DNA of 64,000 bases from an uncultured Muribaculaceae bacterium (lineage in GTDB: Bacteria; Bacillota_I; Bacilli_A; RF39; UBA660), in assembly GCA_964587565.1 (NCBI GenBank), contig CAZPLK010000004.1, positions 4,220 through 68,219 of the forward strand, read 5' to 3'. The notes under the pieces are model-generated. The model was not told the DNA's origin. It saw only the letters and a program-made list of their open reading frames with translations, and ran no database searches. The position numbers were made by a program, and so were the translations under genes. Positions 3,049-61,297 of the stretch are shown here, piece after piece; the first letter of the stretch is position 1; each line of letters begins with the position of its first letter.

Positions 3049-3064
3049 TTTTTTCCTCCTTAAT

Positions 3065-3144
3065 AAAAAAACGCACACATACAGAGGGTTTTAAGGCTGC
3101 TGTCTTCCGACCCTGACCTAGTTCAACCATATATGTTGCGTCAC
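3065..3144 (-). ncRNA. ffs: Small (4.5S-type) signal recognition particle RNA
   Basis: The minus strand reads ...CUAGGUCAGGGUCGGAAGACAGCAGCCUUAA..., close to the SRP domain IV consensus (AGGUCAGGUCCGGAAGGAAGCAGCC) with a GGAA tetraloop. The 5' ACGCAACAUA pairs with the 3' UAUGUGUGCGU, followed by a U-run. Same tadA/ffs/dnaX neighbourhood as B. subtilis. Ends approximate. Confidence 0.8.
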
Positions 3145-3148
3145 TTAA

Positions 3149-3177
3149 ATAATATTATATCCTCAATATAATTGCAA
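3149..3177 (-). promoter_or_regulatory. Sigma-A type promoter for ffs (TTGCAA-N17-TATTAT)
   Basis: -35 at 3177-3172 and -10 at 3154-3149 on the minus strand. A G start lies about 6 nt downstream. Confidence 0.5.
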
Positions 3178-3256
3178 GTTTTTTTAACATTGATATCTCA
3201 AAACATTTCACTCAAAATATTAAATCGTGGTATTGCTCTATAATGTTGTTTTAAGT

Positions 3257-3272
3257 TGTTTCACACGGAACA
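3257..3272. promoter_or_regulatory. parS: Degenerate parS (TGTTTCACACGGAACA, 2 central mismatches)
   Basis: First unit of the array. Confidence 0.5.
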
Positions 3273-3296
3273 TTAGTTTGTGATATTGTTCTGTGA

Positions 3297-3312
3297 TGTT
3301 TCACGTGGAACA
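3297..3312. promoter_or_regulatory. parS: parS centromere site TGTTTCACGTGGAACA
   Basis: The reverse complement TGTTCCACGTGAAACA equals the Bacillus Spo0J/ParB parS consensus. Confidence 0.85.
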
Positions 3313-3336
3313 TTAGTCCGCGATGTTGTTTCAAGA

Positions 3337-3352
3337 TGTTTCACGTGGAACA
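3337..3352. promoter_or_regulatory. parS: parS centromere site TGTTTCACGTGGAACA
   Basis: Perfect consensus match, unit 3. Confidence 0.85.
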
Positions 3353-3376
3353 TTAATCTGTGATGTTGTTTCAAGA

Positions 3377-3392
3377 TGTTTCACGTGGAACA
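3377..3392. promoter_or_regulatory. parS: parS centromere site TGTTTCACGTGGAACA
   Basis: Perfect consensus match, unit 4. Confidence 0.85.
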
Positions 3393-3416
3393 TTAATCTG
3401 TGATATTGTTTCAAGA

Positions 3417-3432
3417 TGTTTCACGTGGAACA
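3417..3432. promoter_or_regulatory. parS: parS centromere site TGTTTCACGTGGAACA
   Basis: Perfect consensus match, unit 5. Lies 7 bp beyond the gyrA stop. Confidence 0.85.
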
Positions 3433-3438
3433 TTGTTT

Positions 3439-5895
3439 TTAACTGTTTGATTGATGTTCTTTGTGATCTTCGTTATTATCAGAATTTATTAGTGCTATTG
3501 AACTAACTGTTTGATCGTTTTTTAAGTTTATTAACTTTACACCTTGTGATACACGGCCAGTCTGTGAAATTTGTTCTGTAGGTATTTTTATAATTATACC
3601 TGAATCAGTAATTATCATTAAATTTTCTGAGTTATTAATTAATCTGAATGAAATTGGTTTACCATTTTTTTCAGTTATATTTAATGTTTTAACTCCTTTT
3701 GTGGCCCTATGTGTCGTTCTATATTCATTTATACTTGTTTTTTTACCATATCCTTTTTCTGTTACAACTAACACTAGTTCTTTGTCAGTTATAACTTCAC
3801 AACCAATACAATAACTATTTCCTATGTTTATTCCTCTGACTCCACTTGCTGTCCTTCCCATAACTCTAACTTCACTTTCATGAAATCTAATCATGCGTCC
3901 ATCAGATGTTGCTATCATTATTTCGTTTTCGCCTGATGTTTTTTTAACAGATATTAATTCGTCATTATCTTTAAGAGTAATTGCAATTTTTCCTGTTACT
4001 CTTATATTATTAAATTCACTAATTTTGGTTCGTTTTACTAATCCGTTTTGTGTACAGAATACAACATAATCTTTTTCTTCTTCTTCACCCATTTTTAATA
4101 ATACGGTAACCTTTTCGTCTTTATCTAATTGTAATAAATTTACAATTGGTATACCTTTCGATTGTCTACCAAAATGCGGAATAGTATATCCTTTACTTCT
4201 ATATACTTTTCCCTTATTAGTAAAGAATAATATATAATCGTGTGTTGTTAATGAAATTAAATTTTCTACAAAATCTTCTTCATTAATTCCCATTCCTCTT
4301 ACACCAACACCACCCCTATTTTGGGTTCGATACGTTTCTAAATCTACTCTTTTAATATATCCTTCACTAGTCATCGTTACAACAATATCCTCAACAGGTA
4401 TTAAAGATTCATCTTCTATGTATTCTATTGCAGTCATATCAATTGTAGTTCTTCGTTCATCACCATATTTATTTTTGATTTCTAATAATTCTTCTTTTAT
4501 TACATTTTTTATTTCTTCATCACTTGATAATATTAATTTTAATTGTGCAATTAATTCTTTTAGTTTTTCTAATTCATCTTCTATTTTTGCTCTTTCTATA
4601 CTAGATAATCTTCTTAATTTCATTTCTAATATAGCTTCTGATTGTATTTCAGTTAATTTATATTTTTCCGCAAATTTTATTTTAATTTCTTTTTCATTTT
4701 TTGATGTTTTAATTATTTGGATTATTTCATCAATATGATCTGTTGCTATTTTTAACCCTTCTAAAATATGAAATTGTTTTTCTGATCTATCTAAATCAAA
4801 TTTTGTTCTCCTATATATAACATTCATTTGATGTTCTAAATAGTATTTTAATATTTCTTTAAGTGGTAGTGTTCGAGGGCGACCATCTACTAACATTAAA
4901 AAATTAACACCTATTGATGTTTGCAATTGGGTATATTTATAAAGGTTGTTTAATACAACTTTAGGATTATAACCCTTTTTAACATCAATTACTATTTTTA
5001 TTCCCTCTAAAGCTGACTCATCAGTTAAGTTAGAAATTCCATCTATTTCTTTATCCCTTACTAACTCTGCTATTTTTTTGATTATATTAGTGTAATTAAT
5101 TTGATAAGGTATTTCCGTAATGATTAATTTTGATGAATCACCATGTTCTTCTATTTCTACTTTACCTCTAATTACAATAGTTCCCCTTCCAGTTTCATAA
5201 GCTTGTTTTATTCCACTGTTACCTAAAATTTTTCCACCAGTTGGAAAATCTGGTCCTTTTATATACAACATTAATTCTTCTAATGAAATTTCCTCATTAT
5301 CAATGTATTTTATTAAACCATCGATTGTTTCAGTTAAGTTGTGGGGAGGAATATTTGTAGCCATTCCAACAGCTATACCTATATTACCATTTACTAATAT
5401 ATTTGGATATCTCGAAGGTAACACTCTAGGCTCAACAGTTTCACCATCATAATTTGGAATGAAATCAACACTATTTTTATTGATATCTCTTAATAATTCA
5501 GCAGATATTTTTGATAATCGTGCTTCAGTATAACGAGATGCAGCAGGGCTTGAACCATCAGGAGCCCCGAAAGCTCCTTTACCATCTATTAATGGGTACC
5601 TATATGAAAAATCTTGTGCCATTCTTGCCATTGTATCATATATAGCAGCATCACCATGAGGGTGATATGCCATTACTTTACCACAAGTAGTTGCTGATTT
5701 TTTATATGTTTTATCGCTTGTTATACCTTCTTTAAAAAATGTATATAATATTCTTCGGTGAACTGGTTTTAAACCATCCCTAACATCCGGTATTGCCCTA
5801 GAAACAATAACACTCATTGAATAATCTAAAAACGAATTTTTAATTTCAGTAGATATATTAATATCTACTGTTTTATCTTTATCAATATATTCCAT
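3439..5895 (-). CDS. gyrA: DNA gyrase subunit A
   Basis: 818 aa. AAMRYTE-like ASRYTEARL active-site Tyr region, QRDR HPHGD, C-terminal beta-pinwheel repeats. Confidence 0.97.
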
Positions 5896-9044: not shown

Positions 9045-9078
9045 CAAAAAATTAAAAAAAGCGTTTTTAACGCTTTTC
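9045..9078 (-). terminator. Intrinsic terminator after the comK-like gene
   Basis: Stem AAAGCG/CGCTTT followed by a U-run on the minus strand. Overlaps the stop codon. Confidence 0.5.
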
Positions 9079-9525
9079 TTGAGTTTTTCTTTGTCTTAAA
9101 ATAGATTCTAATCTTGATGCTCTTAATATTTGATTTTCAAATGAGGAATATGAAATTGGAAATTTTAATGTTTTTCCATTTTTAAAAAATATAATTGTTT
9201 TATCATCAGATTTTTTATAATGTGAAATCTTATTTAATGAGATCCAAGAACATTCAGTTGAGCGAGCTGAACCTGTTGGAAAAAATATTATTTCACGAGT
9301 TTCCTCAATTATAATTGGACATTTGTATACCGTCCCGCCTAAAAATGTTTTGCTTCCTTCAAATCTTCCTAAATAAGAACTACCAAAATAACGACAACTA
9401 TCATCAATTATTTTAGGAGTAGTTCTATTTACGATAAAGCTACCTTCCTCTTCTATAATTTCACTTTTCGTATCATCAATTGCAAGCACTGCAATTGTTG
9501 AAGGATTGATTTCGTATTTCTTCAT
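9067..9525 (-). CDS. comK: ComK-family competence transcription factor homologue
   Basis: 152 aa. It aligns by eye along most of B. subtilis ComK (from memory): SCRYFGSSYLGR vs SCRFFGSSYAGR, FFPTGS vs LFPTLS, C.WIS, NGKTL.FPISYSSFENQ vs NGKTMELPISYNSFENQ. Own RBS AAGGAGGTG. Confidence 0.8.
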   Translation of the reverse strand: MKKYEINPSTIAVLAIDDTKSEIIEEEGSFIVNRTTPKIIDDSCRYFGSSYLGRFEGSKTFLGGTVYKCPIIIEETREIIFFPTGSARSTECSWISLNKISHYKKSDDKTIIFFKNGKTLKFPISYSSFENQILRASRLESILRQRKTQEKR

Positions 9526-17987: not shown

Positions 17988-18684
17988 AGAAGAGTTTAAA
18001 AACAATTTAAAAAACATTGGAATAATTGCTACTGACTTGCAATTAATTCAATTAAAGAAATATTATCAATTATTGTGTGAGTGGAACAAAAAAATGAATT
18101 TGACAAGGATTATTGAAAAAGAAGATGTGTATTTAAAACATTTTTATGATTCTTTAACAATAGTTAAAATAATAGATTTAAAAATGATTAATAATATGTG
18201 TGATGTAGGAACAGGTGCTGGTTTTCCTGGAATCGTAATAAAAATCTTTTTTCCTCAAATAGATGTTACTTTAATTGATTCATTAAATAAACGTGTAGTA
18301 TTTTTAAATGAAGTTATTTATGAATTACAACTAAATAATATAAATGTAATTCACGGTCGAATAGAGGATTATGCCAAAAATAACATATCCAAATTTGATT
18401 TAGTAGTAGCACGTGCAGTAGCACCTTTAAATGTATTGTTGGAATATTGTATTCCAATTGTAAAAGTTGGAAAAAATTTCGTAGCAATGAAAGGAGATAT
18501 TTCCCAGGAAATATTAAATTCGCAAAAGGCATTAAAAATTTTAAAATGTAGTGTAGTTAAAATTAAAAAATTTGAGCTACCTATTGAACAAAGTAAAAGG
18601 AGTTTAATATCAATAAAAAAGGAAACAAAAACACCTTCTAAATATCCCAGAGAATTTAAGCACATAAAAAATAATCCATTATAA
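17980..18684 (+). CDS. rsmG: 16S rRNA (guanine527-N7)-methyltransferase RsmG
   Basis: 234 aa. SAM motif DVGTGAGFPGI. Follows mnmG. Confidence 0.93.
   Translation: MTEEEFKNNLKNIGIIATDLQLIQLKKYYQLLCEWNKKMNLTRIIEKEDVYLKHFYDSLTIVKIIDLKMINNMCDVGTGAGFPGIVIKIFFPQIDVTLIDSLNKRVVFLNEVIYELQLNNINVIHGRIEDYAKNNISKFDLVVARAVAPLNVLLEYCIPIVKVGKNFVAMKGDISQEILNSQKALKILKCSVVKIKKFELPIEQSKRSLISIKKETKTPSKYPREFKHIKNNPL
18499..18512. promoter_or_regulatory. NBS-like palindrome ATTTCCCAGGAAAT inside rsmG (13/14)
   Basis: Same 19-mer as in dnaX. Lies about 270 bp upstream of the noc-like start. Confidence 0.45.
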
Positions 18685-18689
18685 AAAAC

Positions 18690-18703
18690 ATTTCCCGGGA
18701 AAT
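18690..18703. promoter_or_regulatory. Perfect Noc-binding site ATTTCCCGGGAAAT (followed by half-site ATTTCCC at 18704-18710)
   Basis: Exact match to the 14-bp B. subtilis NBS palindrome as I recall it. Located in the rsmG-noc intergenic region, about 80 bp upstream of the noc-like start. Confidence 0.65.
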
Positions 18704-18779
18704 ATTTCCCAAAAAAGATTGTAATATTAAGTAAAATATAGTAATATAAAAGTATAAAAGAATAAAAAGGAGGCAAATT

Positions 18780-20108
18780 GTGGAAAATAAAAGAAAAGTT
18801 ATTGAATTAAATCTTGATGATGTTTTACCAAATAGGTTCCAGCCACGAATTAAATTTGATGAAAAGGCAATTAATGAATTAGCCGGTTCAATTAAAGAAT
18901 ACGGAGTCATACAACCAATTTTAGTAAGGGAAATTGGAGATAAATACGAAATTATCGCAGGTGAAAGAAGATATAAAGCTAGTGCACTAGCAGGTAAACA
19001 AACAATTCCTGCAATAATAAGTAATTTGAATGATAGAGATAGTGCTGAAGTCGCACTAATTGAAAATATACAAAGGAAAGATTTAACTCCAATAGAAGAG
19101 GCAATATCATACAAAAAAATATTAGATATGGGTTATTTAAACCAAGAAGAATTAGCTGACAAATTAGATAAAACGCAATCAACAATATCAAATAAACTAA
19201 GACTATTAAATTTAGACGAGGAAGTTCAAGAAGCTTTATTAAATAATCAAATTTCTGAAAGACATGCTAGATCATTATTGAGATTAGAAAACTCAATGGA
19301 ACAAAAAGAAATGTTACAAAGAATTATTGAAGAAAGATTACCAGTTAGGAAAACTGATATAGAAATTGACAAAATATTAAATATTGAATCTTATACAGCT
19401 GATTATTCTAGTGAAAAGATAGAAAACGATATACCAGATGAAAAAGTTGATATCTTTAATATTCCTTCATCACCGATAATAGAATCGTTTGATGAAATAG
19501 AAATATTTGATGATTTTAATAACAATGAGACAAATTTTAAACCTGGATTTTTAGATATTGATAGAATTGAACAAACAGCGGAAGAAATAAATACAGAACA
19601 ACCATTAGCGGATATTCAAAAATTATTAGAATCTGATAATAATACCATTAATAATGAAATATATGAAGGTGTCGAAGAAAAAGAAGAAAATAATAATATA
19701 ATTCATGGTAAATTTTTCAGTTTTGTAGATGATAATAAAAATAATGAATTAGTTACAGAACAAACAGATAATGATAATAAAACAAATTTAAATGAGTTAA
19801 ACAGTGATTTTATAACTGATATTAAAAGTGAAGAAGTTTCATCGACATTTGAACCGGATTATAATTTTGATTTTACGCCTAGTGATGTAGAAACTGATAA
19901 ATTATTATTTGGTAATAATGATGTAGTAGATTACTCAATCCCAGGAGTTGATGATATAGAATACGGTGAAAAAACAATTACTTTAAATAATGCAATAACA
20001 GAAGCAAGGAATTTTGGACAAACATTAGAAAAAATGGGTTTTGAAATAGAAATTGAAGAATTAGATTTAATGGATATTTATGAAATTAAATTTAAAATAA
20101 AAAAATAA
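18780..20108 (+). CDS. noc: Nucleoid occlusion protein Noc-like ParB paralogue (atypical, 442 aa)
   Basis: GTG start after AAAAAGGAGG. ParB N-domain (IQPILVR, GERRYKAS). The HTH KTQSTISNKLRLL...ISERHARSL resembles B. subtilis Noc (KGQSTIANKLRLL...ITERHARAL) rather than Spo0J. Position after rsmG. Long D/E/N-rich insert, then a Noc-like C-terminal domain. Confidence 0.75.
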   Translation: MENKRKVIELNLDDVLPNRFQPRIKFDEKAINELAGSIKEYGVIQPILVREIGDKYEIIAGERRYKASALAGKQTIPAIISNLNDRDSAEVALIENIQRKDLTPIEEAISYKKILDMGYLNQEELADKLDKTQSTISNKLRLLNLDEEVQEALLNNQISERHARSLLRLENSMEQKEMLQRIIEERLPVRKTDIEIDKILNIESYTADYSSEKIENDIPDEKVDIFNIPSSPIIESFDEIEIFDDFNNNETNFKPGFLDIDRIEQTAEEINTEQPLADIQKLLESDNNTINNEIYEGVEEKEENNNIIHGKFFSFVDDNKNNELVTEQTDNDNKTNLNELNSDFITDIKSEEVSSTFEPDYNFDFTPSDVETDKLLFGNNDVVDYSIPGVDDIEYGEKTITLNNAITEARNFGQTLEKMGFEIEIEELDLMDIYEIKFKIKK

Positions 20109-20129
20109 ACTGTTAAACAGTTTTTTTTT
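20107..20129 (+). terminator. Intrinsic terminator after noc-like gene
   Basis: AAACTGT-TAA-ACAGTTT followed by T9. Confidence 0.75.
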
Positions 20130-20198
20130 GACCTAAACTTGTTAAAGATTCATATCAATGATAAAATGAAGTGAGTTTATTAAAAAAGGAGTGTATAT

Positions 20199-22148
20199 AT
20201 GAAATTCGATTTGAAATCTCCATATAAACCTTCAGGTGACCAACCGAGAGCAATAAAAGAAATAATCCAAAATATTGATTTAAATAAAAAACATCAAGTA
20301 TTATTAGGGGCAACTGGAACTGGCAAAACATTTACTATTGCTAATGTTATAGCTGAAACAAACAAAAAAACATTAGTAATAGCGCATAACAAAACATTAG
20401 CAGGTCAATTATATGCAGAGTTAAAAGAATTATTCCCAAATAATAAGGTAGAATATTTTGTATCATATTATGATTATTATCAACCAGAAGCTTATGTTGC
20501 AAGAACAGATACATATATAGAGAAAGATGCGTCAATTAATGATGAAATAGATGAATTAAGGCATTCAGCAACATCGGCACTTCTAAATAGGGAAGATGTA
20601 ATTGTTGTAGCATCAGTGTCATGTATATATGGTATTGGTGAAATAGAAGAATACAAAAACAAAATTTTAACTTTAAACATTAATGAAACAGTTGATAGAG
20701 ATTATATAATAGAAAAATTAATAGATATGTTATACGAAAGAAATGATATAGATTTAAAAAGGGGAACATTTAGAGTAAGGGGCGATATATTAGAGATTGT
20801 TCCGATTCATCAAAAAACAAACACAATTAAAATAGATTTTTTTGGTGATCAAATAGAAAAAATAAGCGAAACAGATATTGTAACAGGTAAAATATTATCT
20901 ATTAAAAAATCAGTAACTATATTTCCAGCTAGTCACTTCGTAACTAGTAAAGAAAAACTAGAAAAAGCGATAAAAAACATCAAAAAAGAATTAGATGAGC
21001 AATTAACTAATTTTAAAAAAGAAGATAAATTATTAGAGTATCAAAGACTAAAAGAAAGAACTAATTATGATTTGGAAATGCTTTCAGAAACTGGATTTTG
21101 CAGTGGTGTTGAAAATTATTCACGCCATATTGCATTAAAAGAAGCGGGTGAAACCCCAACAACACTAATAGATTTTTTTGGGGAAGAATTTTTAACTATT
21201 ATTGATGAGTCACATGTAACAATACCTCAAATTGGCGGTATGTATAATGGAGATAGAGCGAGAAAACAAAATTTGGTAAATTATGGTTTTAGATTACCAA
21301 GTGCATTAGATAATAGGCCTTTACAGTTTTCTGAATTTGAATCTAAAATGAAAAACGTAATATACGTATCAGCTACACCTGGTGATTATGAAATGAATAA
21401 AAGTAATAATTTAGTTATAGAACAAATTATAAGACCGACTGGTTTATTAGACCCAATAATTGAAGTTAAAAGTACTAAAAATCAAATAGATGATTTAGTT
21501 GAAAATATATATCAACAAGTAAAAAATAATGAAAGAACTTTAATTACTACGCTAACAATAAGAATGTCTGAAGAATTGTCAGCACATTTAAAAAAAATAG
21601 GTATCAAAGTGGCTTATTTACATAGCGAAATAGTCACATTAGAAAGATTACAAATAATTAGGGATTTAAGGTTAGGTAAATATGATGTTTTGGTAGGAAT
21701 TAACTTATTGAGGGAAGGATTAGATATACCAGAAGTAAGTTTAATAGCTATATTAGATGCTGATAAGCAAGGTTTTTTGAGAAGTTCTAGAAGTTTAATT
21801 CAAACGATTGGTAGGGCTGCAAGGAATAAAAATGGTAGAGTGATAATGTATGCTGATAATATTAGTAATGCTATGAATGTAGCAATAACCGAAACTAATA
21901 GAAGAAGAAAAATCCAAGAAAATTATAACAAAAAACATCAAATAACACCTCAAACTATAATAAAAGAAATAAGGGAAGTTGTAACAAATCAAGAAGAGTT
22001 AGAAACTGAAAACTTTACAAATATTAGTAACGATGAAAAGATAAAAATTATAAAAAATGTTGAAGAAGAAATGAAAAAAGCAGCGGACAATTTAGATTTT
22101 GAAAAAGCTATGGAATTAAGGGATATATTGTACGAAATAAAAAAATAA
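20199..22148 (+). CDS. uvrB: Excinuclease ABC subunit B
   Basis: 649 aa. GATGTGKT, helicase motifs, C-terminal UVR domain (FEKAMELRD). Confidence 0.96.
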
Positions 22149-22662: not shown

Positions 22663-23478
22663 ATGAATGCAATATTTTTAGATTTAGGATATGTAAAAAT
22701 TTATTGGTATTCTATAATGATTTTATCGGGATTGTTGATTGGTGGAGCACTTGCAATAAGAGAAGCAAAAAAATGGTTAATTGATGAAGATTTTATGATA
22801 AATTTATTTTTTTATTTAATACCATTTTCAATAATAGGTGCTAGAGTTTATTACGTTTTGTTTCATTTCGATTATTATAAATTAAATATAAACGAAATTT
22901 TTAGAGTGTGGGAGGGCGGTTTGGCCATTCACGGCACTATTATAGCCGGAATATTATTTATAATATTTTATTCTAAAAAACATAAAGTTGATACATTTAG
23001 ATTACTTGATATAATTGTGGTAGGATTATTAATAGGACAATCTATTGGAAGATGGGGGAATTTCTTTAATCAAGAAGCATATGGACCCGCTACTACATAT
23101 AATTTTTTAAAAGGCTTATATATACCAGAGTTTATTATAAAAGGTATGAATATTAATGGAATATATCACCAACCTACTTTTTTATATGAATCATTATGGT
23201 GTTTTTTAGGTTTTATAGTAATTTTGTTTGTAAGAAGATACAAATATTTAAAAACCGGTCAATTAACATCATTTTATTTAGTTTGGTATAGTATAGGAAG
23301 ATTTTTTATTGAATCTTTAAGGACAGATAGTTTAATGTTTAAAAATTTTAAAGCAGCACAGATTATGTCTTTATTAATGATTATAGTTGGTATAATGTTT
23401 TATTTTATTAGAAATAGGGGAACAAAATTGAGCAATTTATATAATGATAAGGAGAATGTAGAAAATGTTGATTTTTGA
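22663..23478 (+). CDS. lgt: Prolipoprotein diacylglyceryl transferase
   Basis: 271 aa. WEGGLAIHG and GRWGNFFNQEAYG signature motifs. Confidence 0.93.
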   Translation: MNAIFLDLGYVKIYWYSIMILSGLLIGGALAIREAKKWLIDEDFMINLFFYLIPFSIIGARVYYVLFHFDYYKLNINEIFRVWEGGLAIHGTIIAGILFIIFYSKKHKVDTFRLLDIIVVGLLIGQSIGRWGNFFNQEAYGPATTYNFLKGLYIPEFIIKGMNINGIYHQPTFLYESLWCFLGFIVILFVRRYKYLKTGQLTSFYLVWYSIGRFFIESLRTDSLMFKNFKAAQIMSLLMIIVGIMFYFIRNRGTKLSNLYNDKENVENVDF

Positions 23479-24452: not shown

Positions 24453-25238
24453 ATGGGAAAAGTAATTTCACTTGTCAATCAAAAGGGTGGTGTTGGTAAA
24501 ACAACATCAAGTATCAATTTAGCAGCTTCATTGGGTGTTTTAAGAAAAAAAGTTTTACTTATTGACTTAGATCCCCAAGGTAATGCAACAACTGGAATTG
24601 GAATTAATAAAGCCGATATTAGAAAAAGTATATATGATTTACTTATTGATGAAGCTTCATTGAATGAAGTTATTGTCAAAACAAAATTTAAAAATTTATA
24701 TGTTATTCCTGCTACGATAAATTTAGCAGGCGTTGATATAGAATTAATGGATAAAAGTCGTTTAGAACCAGGTTTTTCTAAAGGTGGCCAATTAAAAAAA
24801 TATATAGACGAAATTAAAAATGTTTTTGATTATATAATAATTGATTGCCCACCATCATTGGGAATATTGACTACCAATGCTTTGACTGCGAGTGATTCAG
24901 TAATAATACCAGTTCAGTGTGAATTTTTTGCTCTAGAAGGTATAATGCAATTGTTAAATACAATTATGTTAGCACAAAAAAATTTAAATCCATCCTTAGA
25001 TATCGAAGGTGTATTATTAACTATGTTAGATAGTAGAACAAAATTAGGATTAGAAGTTGTAGAAGAAATTAAAAGTTACTTCAAAGAACGTGTATACGAT
25101 ACAATAATACCAAGGTTAGTTCGATTGTCAGAAGCTCCCAGTCATGGTAAACCTATAATAGCATATGATCCACAAAGTAGAGGAACAGAAGCATATATAA
25201 ATTTAGCTAAGGAAGTGATTGAAAGAAATGGAAAATAA
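24453..25238 (+). CDS. soj: Chromosome partitioning ATPase ParA/Soj
   Basis: 261 aa. Deviant Walker A NQKGGVGKTT. Directly upstream of parB. Confidence 0.93.
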   Translation: MGKVISLVNQKGGVGKTTSSINLAASLGVLRKKVLLIDLDPQGNATTGIGINKADIRKSIYDLLIDEASLNEVIVKTKFKNLYVIPATINLAGVDIELMDKSRLEPGFSKGGQLKKYIDEIKNVFDYIIIDCPPSLGILTTNALTASDSVIIPVQCEFFALEGIMQLLNTIMLAQKNLNPSLDIEGVLLTMLDSRTKLGLEVVEEIKSYFKERVYDTIIPRLVRLSEAPSHGKPIIAYDPQSRGTEAYINLAKEVIERNGK

Positions 25239-26109
25239 AAAACGCGCTCTAGGAATGGGTTTAGAACAATTGTTTAATAGTGAAAATTTAGATTTGGCAA
25301 ATATGGAGAAAAAAATATATGACTCAGTGAAAACTGAAGAAATAATTGATATTAAAATTGAAGATTTGCGCCCAAATCCTTATCAACCTAGAAAAATATT
25401 TGATGAAGAAGCTATAAATGAACTGTCAAACTCAATAAAAGAGCATGGTGTTATTCAACCGATAATAATTAAAAAATCGATAAAAGGATTTGAAATCATA
25501 GCTGGTGAAAGAAGGGTAAGAGCGAGTAAAAAGGCTGGCCTAGAAACAATTCCTGCTATAATTAGAAACTTTACAGATGAACAAATGATGGAAATCGCCC
25601 TTTTAGAAAATTTACAAAGGGAAGATTTAAGTGCAATTGAAGAAGCACTTGCTTACAAAATGATGTTAGAAAAATTGGAGATAACTCATGAACAATTATC
25701 AAAAAAAGTAGGAAAAAGTAGAAGTCATATTACAAATATGTTAGGTTTATTAAGGTTGCCTAAAGAAGTTCAAGATATGATTAATAATAAAAAAATAACT
25801 ATGGGTCATGCTAGGGTGTTAAGTAAACTTGATGATGAAACTCAAATAATAGAAACAGCTAAAAATATAGTTGATCATAAAATACCTGTACGTGAATTAG
25901 AACAAACTGCAGATCCAAAAAAGTTTGAAAGAAGAAACAAAATAAAAAGACCGATTAGAGAAGATAATAATAAATATAAACATATTGAAGAATTATTATG
26001 TGATAAATTGGATACCAAAATCAAAATTAGAGATAATAAATTGATTATAAATTTTACTAATGTAGCAGATTTAAATAGAATATTAGAAGTGTTAAACATA
26101 AAGGAGTAA
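25228..26109 (+). CDS. spo0J: Chromosome partitioning protein ParB/Spo0J
   Basis: N-terminal KRALGMGLEQLF ParA-interaction peptide, GERRVRAS CTP motif, HTH KSRSHITNMLGLL...MGHARVL. ATG at 25228 preferred over the TTG at 25219. Confidence 0.92.
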   Translation: MENKKRALGMGLEQLFNSENLDLANMEKKIYDSVKTEEIIDIKIEDLRPNPYQPRKIFDEEAINELSNSIKEHGVIQPIIIKKSIKGFEIIAGERRVRASKKAGLETIPAIIRNFTDEQMMEIALLENLQREDLSAIEEALAYKMMLEKLEITHEQLSKKVGKSRSHITNMLGLLRLPKEVQDMINNKKITMGHARVLSKLDDETQIIETAKNIVDHKIPVRELEQTADPKKFERRNKIKRPIREDNNKYKHIEELLCDKLDTKIKIRDNKLIINFTNVADLNRILEVLNIKE

Positions 26110-59183: not shown

Positions 59184-59323
59184 AAAACCACCCTTTCATT
59201 TGTTTTCAATATTAGGATATTCAGAACGATAAAAAGAGTGTTAACTAATACCTATTAAAAAAGGTAATAAAGTTTTTAATATTATATGTGATATAATATT
59301 GTTATGTTTGAAGGTGGTTTGTG

Positions 59324-61297
59324 ATGAAAAATTATATGTTTAATAATAAATATATAAAAAATAATAACTTTTTCATATTATTCATTATAATGTTTATTAG
59401 TTTAATTTATGTGGAAATACTATTTAAATATTTTGCATTTAAGCAAATTTATGGGTTAGAATTAATTAGGATATTTTTATTTACCATATTCACAAGCTTA
59501 ATAATATCCTTTTTTGCATCATTATTTAAAAAAATGATTGCAAAAACAATCGTATTAACAACAATATTTTTTTCAAGTATTTATGCAATTACACAATTAA
59601 ATTTTAAAAATTTTATGGGTAACTACATGTCACTTAATGCAACTAGTGATGGAATTGGAAGAGTTACGAATGAAATTAAAGCATTCATACTATACATTAA
59701 TCCTTTTTATTTATTATTGCTAGTTCCATTTTTATTAATATTTGTTTTATTCAACAAATTAAAATTAATATATCACAGACCTAAATATTTAAGTATAATT
59801 AAAAGAACACTTTTAATTATTTCAATTCATTTAATATCGTTATCCACTTTATATATTCCATTTTTTCAAACGCCTACTCAAATTAAAGATAATAAAACAT
59901 TATATAAAAACCCGGTACTAATAGAATTATCGTTAAAACAATTTGGAATAATACGCTTTTTTGTGAGAGATTTTATATATATATTTAATAAGCATGAAGA
60001 ATTTATTGTTATAGATAAAACTGAAAGCGAGGAGTCACCACCTGTTGCAATTCCAGATTACACAAGAGAAATAGATGATACTCAGTGGAAAAATATAATG
60101 AAAAATGAAAAAAATAAACAAATAAACAAATTACATGAATTTTACATTAACCAAAACATTACTATAAAAAATGATATGACAGGTATGTTTAAAGATAAAA
60201 ACTTAATTTATATTATGGTGGAAGCTTTTGATATGATTGCCATTAATGAACAACTGACACCAACGTTATATAAATTATCAACTGAAGGTATCACATTTGA
60301 TAATTATTATGCTCCTAAATATAGTTGTACAACAGGAGAAAGTGAGTTTATAAGTTTGATGTCAATAATTCCTAGTTTAACTTTGTGTACTCCAAATTCA
60401 TATAAAAACAATAATTACAGCACTTCACTTTTCCAACTTTTTTCTAATAATGATTACTTTAATACTTCTTATCATAATTATTCGGATAAATATTATCATA
60501 GGAAAACCTTGCATAAAAATATGGGTTCTTTAAAATTTTATAATGATGAAGATTTAGCAATTAATAAAATATTAGGATGGCCTAGTGATTTAAATTTAAT
60601 GGAAGAAGCACTCCCACATTTTATTAATGAAGAAAAATTTATGAGTTTTATAATTACTTCATCGATGCATTTTCCTTATGATGAAGATGGGCATGTTGGG
60701 GTGGTATTAAAGCATTGGGACAAAGTGAAAAAACTGCCATACAATAATAAAATAAAAAGATACATGGCTAAAGCAATTGAATTTGATTTATCAATTAAAT
60801 ATTTGTTAGAACAATTAAAATCAAAGAATATACTTGATGACACTGTAATTGTACTGTTTGGTGATCATCATCCATTGAACATGGAATATAAATATTTAAA
60901 TGAAGCATCGCCAATAGATAGAATTAAAGATTTTAATATCGATAAATTACCATTCATCATATATAATAATCAAATCGAACCAATGACTGTGAATAAAACA
61001 GCTAGTACTTTTGATATTGTGCCTACAATTGCTAATTTATTTGATTTAAATTATGATCCAAGATATTACATAGGTAAAGATTTGTTTTCAAAAGAGGAAA
61101 CAATTGTTATATTTTCTTCAGGAAGCTGGATAACAGACAAAGCAATTTATTATTCGAGTACTGGTCATTACAAAGAACTCCAAGCAATTGATGAAGATTA
61201 TATAAATGAGGTAAACAAAAAGGTAAATAATTATTTTTTAGTCTCTGATCAAACATTAGTGCTCGATTATTTTAAATACCGTTTCCCTAATAATTAA
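59324..61297 (+). CDS. LTA synthase (LtaS) family sulfatase-domain membrane protein
   Basis: About 5 N-terminal TM segments, then an extracellular domain with VEAFD, CTTGESEF (nucleophile Thr region) and GDHHP. Confidence 0.8.
   Translation: MKNYMFNNKYIKNNNFFILFIIMFISLIYVEILFKYFAFKQIYGLELIRIFLFTIFTSLIISFFASLFKKMIAKTIVLTTIFFSSIYAITQLNFKNFMGNYMSLNATSDGIGRVTNEIKAFILYINPFYLLLLVPFLLIFVLFNKLKLIYHRPKYLSIIKRTLLIISIHLISLSTLYIPFFQTPTQIKDNKTLYKNPVLIELSLKQFGIIRFFVRDFIYIFNKHEEFIVIDKTESEESPPVAIPDYTREIDDTQWKNIMKNEKNKQINKLHEFYINQNITIKNDMTGMFKDKNLIYIMVEAFDMIAINEQLTPTLYKLSTEGITFDNYYAPKYSCTTGESEFISLMSIIPSLTLCTPNSYKNNNYSTSLFQLFSNNDYFNTSYHNYSDKYYHRKTLHKNMGSLKFYNDEDLAINKILGWPSDLNLMEEALPHFINEEKFMSFIITSSMHFPYDEDGHVGVVLKHWDKVKKLPYNNKIKRYMAKAIEFDLSIKYLLEQLKSKNILDDTVIVLFGDHHPLNMEYKYLNEASPIDRIKDFNIDKLPFIIYNNQIEPMTVNKTASTFDIVPTIANLFDLNYDPRYYIGKDLFSKEETIVIFSSGSWITDKAIYYSSTGHYKELQAIDEDYINEVNKKVNNYFLVSDQTLVLDYFKYRFPNN

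Follow-up and report, generated by a model that had tools for sequence, protein, structure and literature searches.

A Noc-like protein of uncultured Bacilli carries a candidate membrane-targeting motif within its acidic interdomain linker

The nucleoid occlusion protein Noc, a ParB paralogue that fixes DNA at the membrane and thereby prevents cell division, reaches the membrane through an amphipathic helix at its N-terminus, and all Noc homologues examined so far carried that helix (Adams et al., PMC4331003). A gene on contig CAZPLK010000004.1 (assembly GCA_964587565.1) raises the question of whether a Noc that opens without such a helix could still be brought to the membrane and, if so, by what route. 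The gene occupies 18780..20108 on the plus strand of a 64,000-nucleotide stretch of this contig, called the window throughout, and its open reading frame (ORF) encodes 442 amino acids plus a stop; we name the product NocL. A preliminary description of the window read NocL as a Noc orthologue that might organise DNA without binding the membrane. Our analysis indicates that NocL is very probably a Noc orthologue and that a membrane-independent function is probably the wrong reading, given that the linker of the protein holds a motif, G[KR]FF[NS][FLM], similar to the xSRFF[GSN][LF] core of the canonical membrane-targeting sequence. We tentatively propose, at a probability of roughly 45%, that a large lineage of uncultured Bacilli rebuilt Noc with its anchor in an acidic linker, paired at a fixed spacing with a helical island, such that recruitment would no longer be triggered by freeing an N-terminal helix from autoinhibition.

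The assignment to Noc rests on phylogeny, reciprocal best structure matches, synteny, specificity residues, C-terminal homology, and Noc-binding sites. When searched against the PDB with phmmer, NocL finds its best sequence matches in Geobacillus Noc (7NG0/7NFU; 204 bits, E 3e-59), with B. subtilis Spo0J (6SDK) at 153 bits. The window's own Spo0J (25219-26109) shows the reverse, with 213 bits for 6SDK and 167 bits for Noc. Foldseek searches with the NocL model also rank Noc structures at the top, and the Noc DNA-binding domain 6Y93 superposes with a root-mean-square deviation of 1.3-1.8 Å. A neighbour-joining tree of ParB/Noc cores was built from 194 columns spanning the N-domain and DNA-binding core of 28 NocL family members, 12 canonical Nocs that carry this name at NCBI, and 7 Spo0J/ParB proteins. 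Inspection of this tree reveals a bipartition of the NocL family plus Noc from Spo0J/ParB in 97% of 200 bootstraps and a monophyletic NocL family at 100%; the preliminary description had allowed for a phylogeny outside the Noc clade, and none was recovered. The C-terminal ~45 residues, noted earlier for their resemblance to the Noc C-terminus, form a predicted helix-strand-strand dimerisation domain (residues 398-442; 19971..20105, plus strand; predicted local distance difference test (pLDDT) 86-94). The corresponding family profile aligns with its counterpart from canonical Noc (hhalign probability 98.5%, E 3e-15), and the last 45 residues of one relative match positions 214-255 of the NCBIfam Noc model TIGR04285 (E 7e-5).

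Some results temper this assignment. The canonical Nocs in the tree were drawn from Bacillaceae only, and NocL falls under the TIGR04285 cut-off, with 269.5 bits over profile positions 1-212 versus the 315 required. Removal of the linker in silico lifts the score only to 278 bits (positions 1-255), still below 315. The sub-threshold score therefore leaves such proteins named only 'ParB/RepB/Spo0J family' in public records.

Gene order is also that of Noc. Within the origin cluster, NocL follows straight after rsmG (also called gidB), with 18684 the last position of rsmG and 18780 the first of NocL, and the order jag-mnmE-mnmG-rsmG-noc is kept in 9 loci of relatives (L001-L009). The order continues as noc-uvrB-yvlD-lgt-trxB-soj-spo0J and recurs in the relatives' loci, so the 4.3-kb uvrB-yvlD-lgt-trxB block that was described between NocL and soj-spo0J is both real and conserved.

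The DNA-binding domain was next compared with the published determinants of Noc specificity. Preference for the Noc-binding site is set by four positions, Q173, K179, K184, and R201 in Caulobacter ParB numbering, where Q173 and R201 require just one permissive Lys, at 179 or 184 (Jalal et al., PMC7383237). The helix-turn-helix domain of NocL covers residues 100-199 (19077..19376, plus strand; Pfam PF17762, E 1.8e-30; Foldseek), and its recognition segment (19170..19271, plus strand) places Q133, K139, N144, and R161 at those four positions. That is to say, NocL carries a Q-K-N-R set that matches Noc at 3 of 4 positions, and we read its specificity as that of Noc because a single Lys at 179 or 184 suffices (PMC7383237). 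Q-K-N-R is found in 160/202 NocL family members, compared with Q-K-K-R in 120/120 canonical Nocs and R-M-R-G in the Spo0J of the window. The DNA-contact segments ISERHARSL and KTQSTISNKLRLL, both pointed out previously, are present. A further 22/202 family proteins carry Q-T-N-R, with Lys at neither permissive position; by the published rule, their binding to the Noc-binding site should therefore weaken.

Putative cognate sites for this domain are present in the same genome. A pattern search located a perfect 14-bp putative Noc-binding site, ATTTCCCGGGAAAT, at 18690..18703 (no strand assigned) in the rsmG-noc intergenic region, 77 bp before the NocL start codon. An extra half-site, ATTTCCC, adjoins it, extending the whole element to 18690..18710 (no strand assigned). 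A one-mismatch site, ATTTCCCAGGAAAT, lies within rsmG at 18499..18512 (no strand assigned) and a second one-mismatch copy at 1635. In total, 4 sites with up to two mismatches occur in the window versus 0.29 expected. The perfect 16-bp sequence TATTTCCCGGGAAATA, which is contained within the Noc-binding-site duplex of the Noc co-crystal (PMC7383237), occupies the matching rsmG position in six relatives (L001-L004, L007, and L008, at ~5690-5740). This rsmG-internal site corresponds to codons ~174-178 and is unchanged in the six relatives despite RsmG proteins just 57-64% identical to that of the window. The closest relative (L009) shares the one-mismatch rsmG site of the window, and the perfect site 3' of rsmG was gained in the window and not in L009.

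The intergenic element has further properties of its own. The stretch 18690-18710 reads ATTTCCC-GGGAAAT-ATTTCCC, two overlapping palindromes, and a scan tool marks it as a minus-strand hairpin resembling a terminator. It might serve both nucleation and regulation of rsmG/noc. A promoter scan around the NocL gene returned hits no more numerous than in shuffled sequence.

Given the missing helix, we examined whether the N-terminus of NocL has been correctly delimited. Translation is predicted to begin at a GTG preceded, at a distance of 6 nt, by the ribosome-binding site AAAGGAGG (18766..18773, plus strand), and an in-frame TAA at 18747..18749 (plus strand) bars any N-terminal extension, as reported before. 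The ORF thus opens directly at the ParB N-domain, 15 residues ahead of LPNRFQPR, and lacks the canonical N-terminal amphipathic membrane-targeting helix (residues 1-10) and helix α2. Nearly all of 253 homologues start 8-20 residues ahead of LPNRFQPR; the short N-terminus is therefore shared by the family and does not stem from a wrongly called start. Among the 253, no N-terminus of the canonical kind, similar to the membrane-targeting sequence, occurs, and neither the window nor the 9 relatives' loci contain a small separate ORF near noc that encodes one.

These observations also address an artefactual origin of the architecture, whether by frameshift, chimeric assembly, a miscalled start, or decay of the gene. 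An assembly or frameshift error had been raised in the preliminary description, and one observation is compatible with it: in Logan unitigs a 35-bp node (19239-19273), which has greater depth and is shared with other sequences, splits the gene. However, depth is equal on either side of the node, and contigs of two independent bioreactor-metagenome runs are identical to the window over 18600-20200, with zero differences. The ORF is unbroken and has a strong ribosome-binding site, more than 250 clusters of varied origin have the same layout, and the linker islands and C-terminal domain are conserved. Conservation across the family effectively rules out an artefact.

The architecture of NocL is accordingly a matter of a whole family. 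At least 250 sequence clusters from metagenome-assembled genomes of uncultured 'Bacilli/Mollicutes', with proteins of 383-848 residues, share the layout. A word-indexed protein search returned at least 120 proteins of 383-693 residues, and an exhaustive search of 50%-identity representatives gave 7,254 matches at E ≤ 1e-30 overall, with 150 clusters listed, almost all of 400-848 residues. Named members are labelled 'Bacilli bacterium' or 'Mollicutes bacterium' and derive from uncultured metagenome-assembled genomes. On the evidence of these sequences, a very large uncultured clade has this architecture as a rule. It is not peculiar to one gene, and NocL represents a new architectural variant of Noc that is widespread in uncultured low-GC Bacilli. 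No description of it was found in the literature searched.

The N-domain itself is well preserved. It spans residues 6-98 (18795..19073, plus strand; Pfam PF02195, E 2.5e-31; pLDDT ~90), and boxes I-III of the ParB N-domain are present, with LPNRFQPR, GERR, and ENxQR invariant across the NocL family. Box II reads GERRYKAS (18960..18983, plus strand), with Lys66 in place of the Arg of canonical GERRWR. The preliminary description had treated this Lys as atypical; it is encoded as described and is universal in the family, where GERR[YF]K occurs in 202/202 sequences. The exchange represents one conservative deviation in the cytidine triphosphate (CTP)-binding domain.

The Pfam scan of NocL recovered ParB_N and HTH_ParB and no domain C-terminal of these. 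Consistent with this result, AlphaFold2 assigns pLDDT >85 to residues 1-205 and 401-442 and <50 to most residues between, as expected for the acidic, mostly disordered interdomain linker at residues 201-397 (19380..19970, plus strand). This linker of ~197 residues contains 27% D+E and 13% N and bears a net charge of -42. Linkers across the family range from 137 to 604 residues (median 291), and their net charge is likewise -42 at the median, whereas the canonical Noc linker has 15 residues and a charge of +4. The region had been characterised as a D/E/N-rich, low-complexity insertion. The acidity and the disorder hold, but the linker is not uniformly of low complexity; alignment reveals three conserved islands within it.

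Island i, [FVY]-N-I-P-x-x-P-I-I-E, covers residues 226-235 (19455..19484, plus strand), with P229 conserved at 95% and I228 at 86%. Island ii, PGF[ML]DIDxIExxAxDI..EKPxADxxxLL, covers residues 254-284 (19539..19631, plus strand) and is likewise defined by conservation. AlphaFold2 predicts it as two short helices, at pLDDT 65-77 in two independent models, and it forms a strongly amphipathic yet acidic helix with a hydrophobic moment of 0.69. Island iii, GKFFSFV, at residues 310-316 (19707..19727, plus strand), is the candidate relocated membrane-targeting motif on the basis of motif counts and logo comparison. Island ii lies N-terminal to island iii in every case scored (PGF before KFF in 174/174), with a median gap of 58 residues. 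Four linker sequences scanned against Pfam at E ≤10 gave nothing meaningful and no match for island ii. An artificial consensus built from islands i and ii, used in a word-indexed protein search for other architectures, matched only one 94-residue fragment.

The segment from island iii to the C-terminal domain is hypervariable across the family. In some members, such as P0065, this segment is enlarged by proline-rich tandem repeats, for example many copies of PEIPSISAEPIMPEVPQA, which suggests that the distal linker acts as a length-variable spacer.

Island iii was then compared with the canonical membrane-targeting sequence. Its family pattern is G-[KR]-F-F-[NST]-[FLM]-[FL] followed by acidic residues, or in fuller form [LI]-x-P-G-[KR]-F-F-[NST]-[FML]-[FL]; the family consensus is PGKFFN[FLM][FL] plus an acidic run, and LKPGKFFNFFDE is an example of the motif peptide. 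The canonical Noc N-termini that we retrieved read M-K-H-[PS]-F-S-R-F-F-[GSN]-[LF]-G-E-K-E. Common to both is a core consisting of a small residue, a basic residue, F-F, a small or polar residue, a hydrophobic residue, and an acidic run. [KR]FF is present in 213/249 family linkers versus 8.8 expected from composition-preserving shuffles, and most linkers that lack it hold degenerate forms such as GKYFDF, GKFINFF, or GRFLNF. On the Wimley-White scale, GKFFSFV is also the most interfacially hydrophobic 7-mer of the NocL linker (-2.19 kcal/mol; canonical median -3.0), and island iii ranks first among 7-mers by this measure in 165/249 family linkers.

The statement in the preliminary description that the N-terminal membrane helix is absent is correct as to location but probably not as to function, as the linker holds a similar motif. 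Our favoured reading, at about even odds, is that the anchor has moved into the linker, away from the CTP-gated N-domain. Work on canonical Noc lends the idea some support. The Noc helix is weak, acts only within multimeric assemblies of protein on DNA, and can be exchanged for a heterologous amphipathic helix, which makes it a modular element (PMC4331003). A relocated weak anchor is therefore mechanistically plausible.

Several properties of island iii weigh against a lipid-binding role. Some 12-15 of the 253 homologues lack any KFF-like motif (P0168, P0176, P0180, P0200, and P0218 are examples among the variant members). The helical hydrophobic moment is modest, at 0.26-0.37 versus 0.42-0.48 for canonical sequences. 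Pro-Gly usually stands just before the motif and many acidic residues lie on its flanks, which should weaken binding to an anionic membrane. Moreover, the canonical F at position -2 and the N-terminal Met-Lys are missing.

In a second explanation, NocL is a Noc orthologue whose KFF motif and islands i and ii dock a partner protein, either of the divisome (FtsZ, FtsA, or SepF) or Soj or SMC. Division or chromosome organisation would then be influenced via protein contacts and not by direct lipid binding. The almost invariant FF is equally typical of a short linear motif for protein docking, and the tight spacing to the helical island, the modest helical moment, and the acidic flanks all suit such a role. 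Island ii, amphipathic yet acidic and modelled at pLDDT 65-77, also fits a protein interface better than a lipid one. The preliminary description had suggested that the acidic region serves a different partner; that idea may now attach to specific conserved islands instead of to acidity itself. In opposition, canonical Noc is without a known partner (PMC4331003), the motif resembles a validated membrane anchor of the same protein family, and the linker has no Pfam match. The β-clamp-binding motif, the SSB-tail motif, and the FtsZ C-terminal peptide were each considered for KFF and rejected, since to our knowledge their consensus sequences do not match it, which likewise counts against docking. 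We regard a partner-docking role as less likely than a relocated anchor, but as its main rival.

Structure prediction bears on a third explanation as well. In the model of NocL, the motif region reaches pLDDT 61-70, which could reflect an intramolecular regulatory element. The motif would dock onto the N-domain or DNA-binding domain of NocL itself and so adjust clamp closure or the binding of CTP, and NocL would organise DNA away from the membrane. In apo-Noc of Geobacillus, the membrane-targeting sequence packs on I81, N104, I116, Q120, and R150 (PMC8429893), and most of these five residues are kept in NocL. However, the same residues are also conserved in Spo0J/ParB and hence do not discriminate, docking does not preclude membrane binding in canonical Noc, and the AlphaFold2 model of a second family member leaves island iii without structure at pLDDT <50. 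An intramolecular element therefore seems improbable.

The β-hairpin around GKFF in the first AlphaFold2 model was not reproduced in the second family member and is not relied on here. Membrane anchors are usually unstructured before binding, and an unstructured island iii fits a membrane anchor or a protein-docking motif alike.

Together, these observations allow a mechanism to be sketched for NocL as a Noc with a relocated anchor. NocL has an intact ParB-type CTP-binding N-domain, a Noc-type DNA-binding domain, and a Noc-type C-terminal domain. It would nucleate at Noc-binding sites, shut as a CTP clamp, and spread, as canonical Noc does. The equivalent of the membrane-targeting sequence, GKFFSFV, would lie ~110-130 residues past the DNA-binding domain in a disordered acidic linker of 140-600 residues, such that each dimer would hold DNA in its clamp and present two weak anchors on flexible acidic tethers able to contact the membrane. 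Membrane binding would arise from the avidity of many DNA-loaded copies, again as with canonical Noc.

Gating is where NocL would depart from precedent. The N-terminal helix of apo-Noc lies buried against the N-domain, and CTP-induced engagement of the N-domains has been proposed to release it (Jalal et al., PMC8429893). An anchor more than 100 residues beyond the DNA-binding domain cannot be gated by CTP in the same way. Gating could possibly involve the conserved helical island that precedes the motif by 50-85 residues; alternatively, recruitment may rest on avidity, tether physics, or a new switch encoded in the linker.

The autoinhibited-helix and CTP-release model of Noc rests on Bacillus and Geobacillus proteins. 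The NocL family, with hundreds of members, offers a direct test of whether anchor position matters for CTP gating, of how DNA can be recruited by weak anchors that hang on long acidic tethers, and of what the two other islands contribute. If the proposed relocation is true, the family represents a natural experiment in which membrane targeting has been uncoupled from the CTP clamp cycle. Automated annotation overlooks these proteins, which carry only ParB/RepB/Spo0J names and fall below the cut-off of the Noc model.

Several other features of the window were noted. A 40-bp tandem repeat of 4.7 copies at 3246-3434 carries parS in each unit, with four perfect copies of TGTTCCACGTGAAACA and one with two mismatches; no other parS with up to two mismatches occurs in the window. 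The array has the signal recognition particle RNA gene (3058-3151, minus strand) on one side and, on the other, the end of an 818-residue ORF, which we take from position and size to be gyrA. Such a tightly phased chromosomal array bears more likeness to a plasmid centromere than to the dispersed parS sites of B. subtilis. A ComK-family ORF (9067-9525, minus strand; Pfam E 1.3e-43) sits in the origin cluster between ORFs that we presume, again from position and size, to be recF and dnaN; B. subtilis has a small yaaA-type gene at this spot. The 658-residue protein at 59321-61297 (plus strand) has a C-terminal sulfatase domain, and domain and size are consistent with an LtaS-type lipoteichoic acid synthase. 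With the ORF at 22663-23478, which we take to be Lgt-like following its earlier naming, it hints at a Gram-positive-type envelope despite the 'Mollicutes' label of some relatives.

Compared with known systems, NocL is closest to canonical Noc (B. subtilis YyaA; Geobacillus thermoleovorans Noc, PDB 7NFU/7NG0; TIGR04285). Its N-domain and helix-turn-helix are 52-53% identical to those of Geobacillus Noc, and it has in common with canonical Noc the specificity residues Q, K, and R, a genomic Noc-binding site of identical sequence, a homologous C-terminal domain, the position straight after rsmG, and a short [RK]FF[SNG][FLM] hydrophobic-basic motif followed by acidic residues. Unlike in canonical Noc, that motif is internal, between the DNA-binding and C-terminal domains, in a linker that is strongly acidic and 140-600 residues long instead of basic and ~15 residues long, and that bears two further conserved islands. 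NocL further differs in box II (GERR[YF]K, not GERRWR), in Asn instead of Lys at position 184, in its score under the TIGR04285 cut-off, and in the uvrB-trxB block that separates it from soj-spo0J.

With Spo0J/ParB (B. subtilis Spo0J, 6SDK, and the Spo0J of the window), NocL shares the fold of the N-domain and helix-turn-helix, the CTP motifs, and an origin-proximal location. The window's Spo0J, unlike NocL, has the R-M-R-G set, an N-terminal LG-x-GL peptide of the ParA-contacting type, and a ParB_C domain, and NocL stands on the Noc side of the tree, away from Spo0J/ParB (97% bootstrap).

The nearest likenesses to the proposed anchoring come from unrelated folds and are analogies only. SepF has an N-terminal anchor with a similar K-x-F-F-S-M-acidic core, and MinD-type membrane-targeting sequences may also be likened to the NocL motif. 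RicO of S. aureus, in which the amphipathic helix is not N-terminal, combines a sequence-specific DNA-binding module with a flexibly linked short peripheral membrane anchor, as NocL may do (bioRxiv 10.64898/2026.03.06.710092). The anchors of the RicO, SepF, and MinD type are terminal, whereas the NocL motif is internal, with long acidic disordered segments on either side.

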